Part shown: piece by piece, positions 5,504-8,794 of the stretch
How positions within the stretch are numbered: position 1 is the first letter of the stretch
Layout: each line of letters begins with the position of its first letter
DNA from: Herminiimonas sp.
GTDB lineage: Bacteria > Pseudomonadota > Gammaproteobacteria > Burkholderiales > Burkholderiaceae_D
Direction of reading: 5' to 3'
Assembly: GCF_030645555.1 (NCBI RefSeq)
Contig: NZ_JAUSME010000322.1
Span: forward strand, 1 to 43,625
Length of the DNA stretch: 43,625 nt
The notes under the pieces: model-generated
What the model was told of the DNA's origin: nothing
What the model saw: the letters and a program-made list of their open reading frames with translations, nothing else
Databases searched by the model: none
Position numbers and translations under genes: made by a program

Positions 5504-7000
5504 ATGACTGAACTCGAATTCAAAACGCTGGCCACGCAAGGCTACAACCGCATCCCCCTGATTGCCGAAGCTTTCGCCGATCTGGAAACGCCGCTATCGC
5601 TCTACCTGAAACTGGCGCAAACCCAGAACAATGGAAAGAATTCCTTCCTGCTGGAGTCTGTTGTCGGCGGCGAACGTTTCGGTCGCTATTCCTTCATCGG
5701 CTTGCCTGCGACGACGCTGATGCGCAGCTTCGGCACCCGCATAGAAGTCGTCAAGAACGATGCAGTTGTGGAGACGCATGAAGGCAATCCGCTCGATTTC
5801 ATCGCCGAATTCCAGGCCCGCTATAAAGTGGCGATCCTGCCCGGCATGCCGCGCTTTTGCGGCGGTCTGGCTGGTTACTTTGGCTATGACGCAGTGCGCC
5901 ACGTTGAAAAGCGCCTGGCCCACAGCTGCCCGAAAGACGATCTCGGCTTGCCGGAAATCCTGTTGCTGCTGACCGAAGAACTGGCCGTCATCGACAACCT
6001 GTCCGGCAAACTGTATCTGATCGTGTATGTCGATCCGGCGCAAGCGGATGCCTATGCACAGGGCCGCGAACGCCTGAAAGACTTGCGCGCAAAATTGCAT
6101 CGCGCGGTCGAAGCACCGCTGACCCCGGCCTCGACACGTACAGAAACGATACGCGAATTCGACAAGCAGTCTTACCTGGCAGCAGTCGCGCAAGCCAAAG
6201 AATATGTGATGGCTGGCGACCTGATGCAGGTGCAAATCGGCCAGCGCATCAAGAAGCCGTATGTCGATGCGCCACTGACGCTATACCGCGCCCTGCGCTC
6301 GCTCAATCCATCGCCGTACATGTACTTCTACAACTTCGGCGACATGCAAATCGTCGGCGCCTCGCCAGAAATCCTGGTGCGCAATGAAGCGATAGGCGAC
6401 GACAAGAAAAAAGTGACGATACGCCCACTGGCCGGCACCCGCCCGCGCGGCGACACGCCGGAAAAAGATGCGGCTCTGGCCAAGGAATTGCTGGCCGATC
6501 CGAAGGAAATCGCCGAACACGTGATGCTGATCGATCTGGCGCGCAACGACATCGGCCGCATCGCTGAAATCGGCAGCGTCAAGGTCACCGACAAACTGGT
6601 GATCGAAAAATATTCGCACGTGCAGCACATCGTCTCCAATGTCGAAGGCACGCTGAAAGCCGGGCTGTCGAATCTGGATGTATTGAAAGCGACTTTCCCG
6701 GCCGGCACGCTGTCGGGTGCTCCGAAAGTGCGGGCGATGGAAATCATCGATGAACTGGAACCAACCAAGCGCGGCATTTACGGCGGCGCCTGCGGTTATC
6801 TGTCATTCGGCGGCGAAATGGATCTGGCGATCGCGATCCGCACCGGCGTCATCAAGGACGGCATGCTGTATGTGCAGGCAGCCGCCGGCATCGTTGCCGA
6901 TTCGGTGCCCGAGATGGAATGGCAGGAAACTGAAAACAAGGCCCGCGCTGTGCGTAGAGCCGCTGAACAGGTGCAAGATGGCTTGGATGGAGAAATCTGA
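5504..7000 (+). CDS. trpE: Anthranilate synthase component I
   Basis: [68 protein letters not shown]. Confidence 0.98.
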
Positions 7001-7155
7001 GATGGCAAATTTTCTACAAGCGGGGATAGTTTCGGCGCAGGCTAACTTGTGCGGAGCGCAAGTTAAGCGTAGCGGCCGTAGCCAAAACTTTCAGCGCGCT
7101 GTGTTAAGAGCAGCCGAACAAGTGCAAGATGGTCTGGACGGGGAGATTTGATATG
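6944..7155 (+). repeat. Diverged direct repeat of the trpE 3' end (61 bp x2: 6944-7004 and 7095-7155)
   Basis: Copy 1 encodes [22 protein letters not shown] and copy 2 encodes [22 protein letters not shown]. By hand count 48/61 nt are identical, and the differences are almost all synonymous. Confidence 0.92.
7002..7151 (+). CDS. 49-aa ORF ending in a duplicated TrpE C-terminus (possibly translated as a coupling linker)
   Basis: [49 protein letters not shown]. The ATG is 1 nt after the trpE stop, behind GGAGA. Its own stop is 1 nt before the trpG ATG. Confidence 0.45.
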
Positions 7156-7716
7156 TTGCTGATGATAGATAACTACGACTCCTTCACCTATAACCTGGTG
7201 CAGTATTTTGGCGAACTGGGCGAAGAAGTCGTTACCGTGCGCAATGATGAAATCACGCTGGAGCAAATAGCGGCCCTGAAGGCGGATCGCATCTGCATTT
7301 CGCCCGGCCCGTGCACGCCGCATGAAGCCGGCGTCTCTATCCCTGTGCTGAAACATTTTGCCGGCAAATTGCCGATACTCGGTGTGTGCCTGGGCCATCA
7401 AGCGATAGGTGCGGCTTTCGGCGGCAAGGTCGTGCGCGCGCAGCAAGTCATGCATGGCAAGACTTCGCTGATCACGCATACCGGCGTCGGCGTCTTCAAG
7501 GGCTTGCCCAGCCCGTACACGGTCACCCGCTATCACTCGCTGGCGATAGAACGCGCATCGCTGCCGGATTGCCTGGAAATCACTGCGTGGACCGATGATG
7601 GCGAAATCATGGGCGTGCGGCACAAGGAATTCGATATCCAGGGAGTGCAGTTTCATCCCGAGTCTATCCTGTCCGAACACGGCCACGCCTTGCTGAAAAA
7701 TTTTCTCGTACGCTGA
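7153..7716 (+). CDS. trpG: Anthranilate synthase component II (glutamine amidotransferase)
   Basis: Starts [15 protein letters not shown]; [24 protein letters not shown]. Start moved from 7129 to the ATG at 7153 (GGGGAG RBS). Confidence 0.97.
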
Positions 7717-7756
7717 GATGAACGACGCCGGCCATTTGAATTCTGAAAGCATCGCC

Positions 7757-8794
7757 ATGCCGATAACCGATCAAGAAGCCTTATTACGCTGCATCGATCA
7801 TCGTGAAATTTTCCACGATGAGATGCTGCACCTGTTCCGCAAGATCATGAGCGGCGAAATGTCGCCGGTGATGATAGCCGCATTGACGATGGGCTTGCGC
7901 GTCAAGAAGGAAAGCATAGGCGAAATTACCGCTGCCGCGCAGGTGATGCGCGAGTTTTCCACCAAAGTGCCGCTCAGCGATACTACCAACCTGCTCGACA
8001 TCGTCGGCACTGGCGGCGATGGTGCCAACACCTTCAATATTTCAACGGCGTCGATGTTTGTCGCCGCAGCTGCCGGTGCGCGCATCGCCAAACATGGCGG
8101 GCGCAGCGTCTCGTCCTCGTCCGGCAGTGCCGATGTGCTCGAATCGCTGGGCGCCAACATCAATCTGAAGCCAGAGTTGGTGGCGGAGTCGATTGCACAA
8201 ACCGGCATCGGCTTCATGGTCGCGCCGAACCACCATGCGGCGATGAAGCATGCAGCGCCGGTGCGCAAGGAACTCGGCGTACGCACCATCTTCAACATCC
8301 TCGGTCCGCTCACCAATCCAGCCGGCGCACCCAACATCCTGATGGGCGTGTTCCATGCAGATCTGGTCGGCATCCAGGTGCGCGTATTGCAACGCCTGGG
8401 CGCACAACATGCAGTCGTGGTCTGGGGTCGCGATAATATGGATGAAGTATCGCTGGGCGCGGCGACGATGGTCGGCGAACTGGTCAACGGCGAAATCCGC
8501 GAATATGAAATTCATCCGGAAGATTTCGGCCTGCCCATGATTGCAAGCCGCAATCTGAAAGTCGCCAATTCCATCGAATCGAAAACGAAAATCTTTGAAG
8601 CACTAGCCAATGTTGATGGCCCGGCACGCGATATCGTCGCCCTGAATGCCGGCACGGCACTGTATGCGGCCGGCGTGGCGAGCTCCATCGCCGACGGGCT
8701 AGAGAAAGCACGTGCAGCGATTGCCTCTGGTGCGGCGCGTGAAAAACTCGAACAGTTCGTCCGCGTCACGCAGGAACTTGGCAGCAAAGCCTGA
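7757..8794 (+). CDS. trpD: Anthranilate phosphoribosyltransferase
   Basis: [42 protein letters not shown]. Likely start is MPITDQEAL at 7757. Confidence 0.97.

Follow-up and report, generated by a model that had tools for sequence, protein, structure and literature searches.

In the 43,625-nt stretch of Herminiimonas sp. DNA analysed here (the window), trpE and trpG are separated by a 151-base unit that we consider likely to be one copy of a widespread betaproteobacterial hairpin repeat, lodged between the working end of trpE and a native-type second copy of that end, and spanned by a 49-codon frame predicted to relay translational coupling to trpG. All parts of the locus lie on the forward strand. 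The trpE gene (5504..7000, stop TGA at 6998-7000) encodes the 498-aa anthranilate synthase component I and scores 550 bits against NCBIfam TIGR00564 (trpE_most, cut-off 517.7), and trpG (7153..7716) encodes the 187-aa glutamine amidotransferase of anthranilate synthase (NCBIfam TIGR00566, trpG_papA, 280.5 bits, cut-off 121). Copy 1 of the repeat (6944..7004) consists of the working last 18 trpE codons with their own Shine-Dalgarno-like GGAG, the stop, a G and the ATG of the small ORF, and copy 2 (7095..7155) is the displaced, native-type trpE tail, which forms the C-terminus of the small ORF and carries the trpG Shine-Dalgarno GGGGAG, the stop and the trpG ATG. The insert between them (7005..7094) is 90 nt, or 30 codons, long and is made up of a left arm, the core of the hairpin element and 5 further bases. 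The core (7028..7089; covariance model R1, 80.1 bits, E 3.9e-21) reads GTTTCGGCGnAGGCTAAC, a variable stem-loop and GTTAAGCGnAGCGGCCGnAGCCAAAAC, and the sequence of the variable inner hairpin (7043..7065) is TAACTTGTGC / GGA / GCGCAAGTTA. The 49-codon ORF (P0001, 7002..7151) begins with an ATG that overlaps the trpE stop (TGAgATG) and ends with a TGA that abuts the trpG ATG (TGAtATG), the layout of a predicted coupling relay.

The repeat search returned one direct repeat of 61 nt (6944-7004 and 7095-7155), 79% identical and with a start-to-start spacing of 151, in which the final 18 trpE codons plus stop-N-ATG are present twice. By script count the copies match at 48/61 bases, and in 40 shuffles of 6000-8500 no 61-nt window exceeded 36 matches. 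Twelve of the 13 differences fall within the 54 coding bases and the thirteenth is the spacer base; nine are silent (eight at third positions and one TTG/CTG) and the remaining three make up a single codon, CGT/TTA (R/L), so that the counts given in the first-pass annotation were borne out. When 12 changes were placed at random, none of 20,000 trials gave one or no amino-acid change. The G at position 6954 that makes the R codon is found only in this assembly; all four public runs carry T (CTT, L), and the two copies therefore encode the same 18 residues in nature. The first-pass annotation had also raised the possibility of an assembly chimera of two strains. Contigs of four runs from four independent studies (X1, X3, X5 and X10) bridge copy 1, insert and copy 2, and the duplicated tail is also present in the assemblies of two other species (G003 and G011), which excludes a chimera.

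The core of the insert is not peculiar to this locus. It matches repeats in a genome of another family, and the 20-nt motif at its 3' end was found at more than 121 loci in genomes labelled Sulfuritalea, Methylophilus, Cupriavidus, Paraburkholderia, Pandoraea, Gallionella and others. Of 151 genomes sampled from the order, 57 (38/97 genera) contained the element according to covariance model R1, with at least 35 copies in the richest genome; the genus of the window has 0-2 per genome, and neither BLAST nor the covariance model revealed a second copy in the genome of the window. The consensus structure over 82 copies contains 12 pairs, four of them with compensatory changes; columns 21/44 of alignment A1, for example, read UA 28, GC 22, CG 12 and AU 9. 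The inner stem is preserved in G011 through paired changes (CCTGCGC/GCGCAGG), and variants of the element show a second small hairpin in a bulge. The fold of 6925-7165 was not more stable than that of shuffled sequence (z 0.98; 165 of 200 shuffles folded equally well or better), and the structural case thus rests on covariation across copies and not on energy. The outer stem extends into copy 2, with 16/17 pairs in G070 and 13-14/17 in four other genomes, and is in part built from the target gene's own sequence. Rfam gave no hit to the element, either in the window (E up to 10) or at 16 other loci (E up to 0.1), and full-text searches outside subscription journals yielded no published description of the element or of its gene-end habit.

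Direct repeats flanking the element were significant at 19/75 loci, two more high-scoring rows of this test being coordinate artefacts at contig ends, and they measure 16-107 nt, varying from site to site. The upstream gene lies on the strand of the element at 52/77 loci, by a crude ORF call that is too rough to build on. In G458, 10 of 21 copies sit in a composite repeat of ~210 nt; we considered this repeat as a larger mobile unit and rejected it, as it contains no gene. The same arrangement, with the element between a working and a displaced copy of a gene's tail, was found at ftsW-murG in Cupriavidus, Paraburkholderia and G018 (a member of the window's genus), at cysH-cysD in G007, at a tRNA-Ser gene, and at gap, where the element forms an array of three 143-nt units. 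The ftsW variants differ in the reading frame that passes through the element, the ORF being open nevertheless, and in the ftsW cassettes the displaced tail keeps only its last six residues. In young cassettes (the gap array and L082) the copies are nearly identical. The element family is real and has a covarying structure, and at several unrelated junctions it separates the tail of a gene from a duplicate of that tail.

At trpE, the two tails have distinct affinities. Copy 2 differs from 19 single-copy tails of the genus at 8.1-9.9 positions, those tails differing among themselves at 9.05, whereas copy 1 differs from them at 13.5-14.9; BLAST paired the tail of the relative with copy 2 in 18/18 single-copy matches. 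Copy 2 follows the clade states of its species (ATC versus ATT at the last codon), and that of G003 differs from the tail of G019 at only 3/54 coding positions (3 of ~60 including stop and ATG). Copy 1 is a sequence type of its own, common to G003, G011, Paucimonas, L086 and G092, and the first copies of five genera share silent-site states (AGA GCC … GAT GGA GA) that are absent from single-copy tails. These comparisons indicate that copy 2 evolves as the native tail and that copy 1 represents a separate, recoded lineage, in keeping with the replacement-end layout anticipated in the first-pass annotation, that is, a new working end, an insert and the displaced native end. Both copies have kept the TrpE residues with silent sites near saturation (within a genome, 8-13 of 16 third positions differ between copies in 6/8 genomes), and the earlier argument against recent slippage or random decay was likewise upheld. 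Among G000, G003 and G011, copy 2 shows zero residue changes at a pS of 0.37-0.74; across eight genomes it has 27 extra silent codon types and 2 extra residues, and the real TrpE tail 21 and 2. Copies 1 and 2 also end in the same genus-specific residues (…GEI, …GER, …GGN).

The trpE-trpG cassette was also found in G003, G011, Paucimonas lemoignei, MAG L086, G092 and G070/G120. Its distribution is patchy: within the genus of the window, trpE and trpG are directly adjacent in 18/26 genomes and separated by the cassette in 3/26, an AU test rejects monophyly of the cassette-bearing species (p 1.3e-66), the single-copy G013 is the sister of G003 (support 100/99), and at least three state changes are needed on the tree. 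All eight cassette-bearing genomes, from five genera, and 73 protein clusters have the same ~90-nt insert with no gene between the copies. The insert diverges by 8-20% among three species, compared with ~50% at silent sites of the flanking genes. We looked for co-conversion tracts around the cassette and rejected them, since cassette-specific states stay inside the repeat and sliding identity revealed no raised similarity in the flanks.

In trp operons, translational coupling takes place at overlapping stop and start codons, and in the single-copy relatives trpE and trpG are joined by a stop/start overlap of this type. In the window, the signals are present twice, as GGAGAAATCTGAgATG at 6989-7004 and GGGGAGATTTGAtATG at 7140-7155, and all other trpE cassettes show the same kind of arrangement. 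As in textbook trp coupling, TGAnATG or ATGA overlaps are combined with a Shine-Dalgarno inside the last codons of the upstream gene; the difference is that here the predicted coupling would run through an extra 49-codon cistron. This ORF results from an insert of exactly 30 codons with both stop/start overlaps retained. Its homologues form 73 clusters, mostly of 49 aa, in which 16 residues of the tail copy are invariant and the N-terminal part varies, and deletions in the hairpin take out whole codons. The frame through the insert is open and flanked on either side by a stop/start overlap, and all trpE-trpG cassettes observed retain it, including those with in-frame deletions. A frameshift fusion of TrpE to the small ORF was also considered, but the relation of the two frames is not constant across genera (TGAnATG in the genus of the window, ATGA in L086), and the fusion was rejected on this ground. 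The RNA runs contain only 0.04-0.07 of the sampled words. Judged from these sequence features, the 49-codon ORF probably relays translational coupling from trpE to trpG.

We propose that ribosomes finishing trpE would reinitiate at the small ORF, unfold the hairpin, terminate at TGAtATG and reinitiate once more at trpG, so that synthesis of TrpG would stay tied to that of TrpE despite the insertion. The cassette probably originated during replication or repair, when the element was copied into the junction and the junction was duplicated along with it; this duplicate would begin at a short match, GAAAAC, between the 3' end of the element and the gene. Once formed, the cassette is probably prone to deletion when its two copies recombine, and it may pass between relatives by homologous recombination. 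A pure relay needs just an open frame and the last few codons, and the relay alone does not explain the 16 invariant residues; copy 2 probably keeps them because excision or conversion regularly returns it to work as the TrpE end, the alternative being a small protein with a role of its own.

Several other explanations for the unit were weighed. Its A-B-A layout amounts to 1.4 units of a 151-nt tandem repeat, as would result from simple tandem duplication or faulty assembly in the absence of any element, and this account can be regarded as refuted, given that B belongs to a repeat family present in more than a third of the sampled genomes of the order and that the structure recurs in assemblies of three species and in the contigs of the independent runs. 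The first-pass annotation had favoured an empty insertion hotspot, at which cargo would enter between trpE and trpG by integron-like or site-specific integration and be expressed from the trp operon. In some relatives other genes do separate trpE from trpG, namely a membrane-protein ORF in G009/G018 and, in genus g46, a threonine-aldolase-like gene (named by eye from its translation), and the element contains GGCTAAC … GTTAAGC, which may resemble the core sites of integron attC. Neither gene, however, is enclosed by the repeat pair, and that of g46 also occurs in g46 genomes that lack the cassette. The relatives have either direct adjacency or the same fixed unit, with only the one element and no variable cargo between the tail copies, and no recombinase adjoins the site. 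The integron integrase model (IntI, TIGR02249) passed its cut-off of 265 in none of five genomes (G000, G003, G011, G018 and G027), where the matches were ordinary tyrosine recombinases of at most 89 bits. The hotspot is not supported by these comparisons, and we regard it as very improbable. The conservation of copy 2 at the protein level could instead reflect a functional micro-protein, a 49-aa product that shares its last 16-18 residues with TrpE and acts on anthranilate synthase, for instance by occupying the docking site of the TrpE C-terminal helix. This would account for a 13-residue stretch that is invariant or nearly so in the 73 clusters next to a variable N-terminal part, for a copy 2 as tightly held as the real TrpE tail, and for the genus-specific last residues common to both copies. 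Nevertheless, shared last residues can also be produced by conversion between copies, displaced tails at other genes decay except for their coupling signals, and the product is without known family, fold or partner (no Pfam or NCBIfam family matched it); we consider a micro-protein unlikely.

A homing-type mini-cassette has somewhat more in its favour, and we hold it as a tentative possibility. Here a gene-less unit of recoded tail and hairpin element would enter gene 3' ends with a replacement end and be carried from one species to another through break repair or gene conversion, the recoding shielding the new end from the cutter of the native one, and copy 2 would be the recipient's own tail, recently displaced. 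The silent-site states shared by copy 1 across genera, the clade states of copy 2 and the patchy distribution are all consistent with such transfer, as are the states common to three cassette genomes and rare in others, which end at the repeat borders. Between G000 and G003, copy 1 and the insert are less diverged than their surroundings (pS of copy 1 0.15, compared with 0.49 at flanking silent sites), which could mean either constraint or later transfer, and in run X5 the cassette allele coexists with a single-copy allele whose right half equals copy 2 of the window. Between genera, however, the divergence of the whole middle region (0.76-0.92) tracks that of the flanks (0.73-0.90) with no sign of recent transfer; copy 1 of g46 carries the genus's own end (…GER), which fits local duplication or conversion better than import; and the near-identical copies of young cassettes look as if they came from local duplication. 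Some decay of copy 2 would be expected even after a late insertion and none is seen, and the element has no linked nuclease or integrase, the sole ORF between the repeat copies being the 49-codon frame. The entry of an element into a gene 3' end that it then replaces is known from prophage e14 at icd of E. coli. A precedent is also provided by the WHO homing elements at yeast FBA1, which enter the 3' end of the gene and supply a replacement end (PMC7282813). The likeness lies in a working, differently spelled gene end followed by an insert and the displaced native end, with stacked arrays possible; these known elements, however, are kilobases long and bring their own endonuclease or integrase, whereas the one described here is 90 nt, gene-less and possibly of local-duplication origin. 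In its broadest form, this account would describe a gene-less homing family, in which a ~60-nt structured element, conserved across Betaproteobacteria, substitutes recoded copies for the ends of housekeeping genes, passes from species to species through gene conversion and persists in operons via relay mini-ORFs that preserve translational coupling. We consider such a family conceivable, with the odds against it; if true, it would be a prokaryotic, protein-less counterpart of homing elements that replace 3' ends.

The preferred reading, a hairpin repeat between a working and a native-type tail, also invites comparison with known families of small repeats. REP, BIME and REPIN sequences are short, gene-less hairpin repeats, mostly found behind genes and moved by RAYT transposases (PMC3733652, PMC2817692); REPs carry a conserved GTAG (or CGTC) tag at one end (PMC3733652) and exceed 100 copies within a genome (PMC2817692). 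The present element is also short, gene-less, hairpin-forming (its paired consensus corresponds to the REP palindrome), mostly behind genes, sometimes arrayed and found in many genomes of its group. It differs in a core that is conserved across the whole order, REPs being species-specific, in a GnAG in which n is A, C, G or T in place of the GTAG tag, in its low copy number in the genus of the window, and in the long and variable flank duplications that come with it. Y1_Tnp genes are present in G000 and in 4/5 high-copy genomes, with no element within ~1.5 kb of the six loci (best E 0.33); the one Y1 transposase gene in the genome of the window is not flanked by the element, and the complete genome G426 has at least 35 element copies and no Y1 transposase. 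No enzyme able to mobilise the element was detected. In-frame insertion into ORFs is described for Rickettsia palindromic elements (RPEs) and other MITEs (PMC10969869), which are likewise palindromic repeats that ribosomes translate and that are tolerated as the frame stays open. RPEs, though, lie within genes and add a peptide to the host protein, whereas here a gene junction is duplicated and a separate mini-ORF, predicted to be coupled, is formed. The fixed short target-site duplication and the transposon terminal inverted repeats of MITEs were not seen in the element, the search for a parent IS having been that for Y1 transposases.

If our reading is correct, two tightly coupled genes of an essential biosynthetic operon can be parted by a small repeat without harm, the junction being duplicated and the element serving as a translated spacer. 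It would also explain the duplicated, silently recoded gene ends and the tiny "hypothetical proteins" of many Betaproteobacteria, give gene annotators a rule for such ends and ORFs, and offer a natural setting in which to test the reach of relayed translational coupling. Why a tail copy outside TrpE should be so strictly conserved at the protein level is a testable puzzle, and the entry of an element that copies 16-107 bases of its target raises a mechanistic question on how bacterial genomes change.

The 3' end of trpE (5504-7000) occurs twice before the start of trpG (7153-7716). Copy 1, comprising the last 18 trpE codons, the stop, one base and an ATG (6944-7004), recurs as copy 2 at 7095-7155, at a spacing of 151 bases and with 79% identity. 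By direct count 48 of the 61 bases are identical, and the best 61-base window among 40 shuffled versions of the 2.5 kb around the repeat gave at most 36 matches. Twelve of the 13 differences lie within the 54 coding bases, eight of them at third positions, one a silent TTG/CTG change and three in a single codon (CGT/TTA); when 12 changes were placed randomly in the tail, none of 20,000 trials gave one residue change or fewer. Four public sequencing runs, one from each of four studies, have contigs that span both copies and the insert, and the same architecture is found in genomes of two further species; together with the repeat counts, these confirm the duplicated, recoded trpE end described in the first-pass annotation, and the duplication is real DNA. 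At 6954 the window has G, giving CGT (R), and all four public runs compared have T, giving CTT (L); the arginine codon is private to the window's assembly, as a variant or an error.

The insert between the tail copies (7005-7094) is exactly 90 bases long. Joined to copy 2 and to an ATG at 7002, it forms a small ORF of 49 codons whose start abuts the trpE stop (TGAgATG) and whose stop abuts the trpG start (TGAtATG). No match to any Pfam or NCBIfam family was obtained for this ORF; the protein database holds 73 clusters of it, most of exactly 49 aa, and the source names provided for some of them include "hypothetical protein [Oxalicibacterium flavum]". A few clusters lack the hairpin, with a whole number of codons missing. 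Among the three cassette-bearing species of the genus the insert diverges by only 8-20% with a dN/dS of 0.55-2.8, which indicates that the force holding the insert is not mainly its peptide. The stability of the local RNA fold at the junction was not above that of shuffles. A 231-codon frame is also open antisense to trpG (7063-7758, minus strand), probably as a consequence of base composition.

The middle of the insert matches repeats in a genome from another family of the same order, and the copies of this hairpin-forming element have a common plan, in which GTTTCGGCGnAGGCTAAC is followed by a variable stem-loop and then by GTTAAGCGnAGCGGCCGnAGCCAAAAC. The 3' motif GTTAAGCGnAGCGGCCGnAG was found at more than 121 loci in public genomes, among the matches listed, under record titles that include Sulfuritalea, Methylophilus, Methylotenera, Cupriavidus, Paraburkholderia, Pandoraea, Gallionella, Rhodocyclales and others. 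An alignment of 82 distinct copies gave a consensus structure of 12 pairs, with the first pair of the variable stem being UA in 28 copies, GC in 22, CG in 12 and AU in 9, and one outer pair being GC in 62 and AU in 16; the 3' half of this set is invariant by construction, because the search pattern fixed it. In copies found by BLAST, without the 3' pattern, the bulge can expand to form another small hairpin. With a covariance model derived from the 82-copy alignment, the element of the window scored 80 bits (7028-7089); within the genus, the model matched strongly only at the trpE junctions of the window's own genome (G000), G003 and G011, and more weakly in G007 and G018. In a sample of the order it matched 57 of 151 genomes and 38 of 97 genera, with between one and at least 35 copies per positive genome, often in tandem. 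Rfam has no family for the element, and no published description was found in full-text searches of the literature outside subscription journals. The element is a member of a widespread family of hairpin cassettes, and this family appears to be undescribed in print.

The trpE-trpG junction was compared across 26 species of the genus. The cassette, i.e. a tail copy together with the element, is present in three genomes (G000, G003 and G011), a single tail is directly joined to trpG in 18, an unrelated membrane-protein ORF occupies an 814-nt spacer without tail repeat in two (G009 and G018), and three (G002, G012 and G023) gave no usable match. The spacer ORF of G009 and G018 (L021/L022) encodes about 220 aa, is hydrophobic (MSAYIASRRFSLPLVF…) and is unique at this place within the genus, and TrpE in these two genomes ends in …DGEA. 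Outside the genus, the trpE-trpG cassette was found in Paucimonas lemoignei, in the MAG of locus L086, in G092 (genus g68) and in G070 and G120 (genus g46). In the latter two, a threonine-aldolase-like gene, named by eye from its translation, separates the displaced tail from trpG; it also occurs in two g46 genomes that lack the cassette, and therefore it is not cassette cargo. This gene, of about 340 aa, stands between trpE and trpG in all four matched g46 genomes (L185, L186, L213 and L214), cassette or not. The spacer of a further genome, G040 (L023), is about 200 nt long and full of a different palindromic repeat (…CGCAAAGGCGCGAAGGCGCAAAGG…), without tail duplication.

Copy 2 of the three cassette genomes shows 8.1-9.9 mean differences from the 19 single-copy tails of the genus, which differ among themselves by a mean of 9.05, and copy 1 shows 13.5-14.9 from the single-copy tails. 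Copy 2 has the sequence states of its own clade and was paired by BLAST with 18 of 18 single-copy tails, and the copies 1 of different genera have in common silent-site states that are absent from native tails. The tail distances and the shared states of copy 1 indicate that it is the working TrpE end that deviates, and the displaced copy that is of the native type. Among the three genomes copy 2 has zero residue changes at a pS of 0.37-0.74, comparable to the silent sites of the flanking genes (0.47-0.57). Over 16 codons shared by eight genomes of five genera, copy 2 shows 27 extra residue-keeping codon types and 2 extra residues, and copy 1 shows 21 and 2, respectively; the two copies in any one genome differ at 8-13 of the 16 third positions (6 of 16 in g46). 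The earlier interpretation of the site, as a replacement gene end under selection and an empty place for cargo, is partly right, in its replacement logic, with copy 2 native and copy 1 odd, and in the selection on both copies, which have changed silently and kept their residues; it is wrong on the cargo site, as no variable cargo was seen between the tail copies.

In the trpE+trpG tree the three cassette species do not group as a clade: the sister of G003 is the single-copy G013 (support 100/99), forcing the three together is 187 log-likelihood units worse (AU p 1.3e-66), and at least three state changes are needed for the cassette. Sequence states special to the three genomes stop at the repeat borders, and the middle region diverges between genera in step with the flanks. 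Both an old cassette, lost many times through recombination between its two copies, and a transfer of the cassette alone between relatives fit the data; the pS of copy 1 between G000 and G003 (0.15, lower than the 0.49 of the flanks) leans towards transfer or constraint, as does a public sequencing run (X5) that also has a single-copy allele equal to copy 2 of the window on its right side. Two other observations lean towards local duplication: copy 1 in g46 ends in the residues of its own genus, and the copies in young cassettes are near-identical.

The same layout is found at other genes. Between ftsW and murG the element occurs in three Cupriavidus and two Paraburkholderia species, flanked on both sides by ~10 terminal ftsW codons, the stop/start overlap and as many as 8 murG codons, and traversed by a mini-ORF; G018, of the window's own genus, also has a cassette at this junction. 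G007 has one between cysH and cysD (L223), where the working cysH end runs directly into the element (…ECGLHLVTDANGVQRLVRASAKANVSGANVKGTK, then stop) and holds a perfect 11-bp hairpin built from the gene's own bases, and the native cysH tail (…ECGLHVVDGKLVRIKSATSA, then stop) is displaced in a different frame. In a Burkholderiales MAG, gap is followed by three near-identical 143-nt units, each of which combines an element with a duplicate of the gap tail. Element copies adjoining tRNA-Ser are accompanied by a duplicated 5' part of the tRNA; at L035 (G027:C10:99300-100300) two tandem elements lie between such a part of tRNA-Ser(GGA) and the intact tRNA, and a duplicated tRNA 3' end is found ~190 nt downstream, as the scar of an integrated element would leave. 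A significant direct repeat across the element flanks was detected at 19 of 75 loci of the motif-scan set, two more high-scoring rows being coordinate artefacts at contig ends that are not in the 19. The complete genome G458 (L254-L273) has such a repeat at 4 of its 21 element copies; 10 of the 21 lie inside a gene-less composite repeat of ~210 nt. This composite is laid out as …ATAGGCGAGGGAGCGAAAACGC, element, GCGCAACGCCGCAGATGGCCCACCGCAGTAG…, and its flanks are also found on either side of the element in several other genera (L062, L087, L102, L105, L111, L119 and L121). The right border of the duplication is where the element 3' end (CAAAAC/CACAAT) matches the gene (GAAAAC, GAAAAT or GACAAT). 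To the left of the core, the arm repeats in inverted orientation the initial bases of the displaced tail and pairs with them: 16 of 17 positions are paired in G070 and 13-14 of 17 in four further genomes, and the pairing is weak in G011 and Paucimonas.

Among known systems, REP/REPIN repeats are nearest in kind to the element, although it differs from them in tag, copy number and transposase. A RAYT-style association was considered and rejected, six Y1 transposase loci having no adjoining element, and Y1 transposase is absent from one complete genome with at least 35 element copies. The window's genome has a single IS200-like Y1 transposase match (L229, G000:C44:3547-3870; 37 bits, in a 241-codon open frame), and no element flanks it. 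No integron integrase scored above the cut-off in any of the five genomes tested. The layout is nearest to that of elements that replace a gene 3' end. Prophage e14 does so at icd. The WHO elements do so at yeast FBA1 (PMC7282813). The present element differs from both in that it encodes nothing. With the Rickettsia palindromic elements (PMC10969869), the likeness lies in read-through, which is predicted for the present element.

Where only one tail is present, the final trpE codons contain both the ribosome site and the start of trpG. A simple insertion at the junction would break TrpE or the coupling, and a cassette that duplicates the junction would break neither. In all trpE and ftsW cassettes seen, a frame is open between the duplicated start and stop, including those in which the element is crossed in another frame; on this indirect evidence from sequence, the frame is predicted to be read and to relay ribosomes to the downstream gene. 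Copy 2 has 16 invariant residues and the ftsW cassettes only the last six, and the invariance of the 16 is left unexplained by the relay. We infer that copy 2 may be regularly returned to work by excision or conversion, with damage being selected against in large populations; the remaining explanation is an independent function of the small protein. At this locus the element has separated two coupled genes, and a conserved mini-ORF is the probable relay between them.
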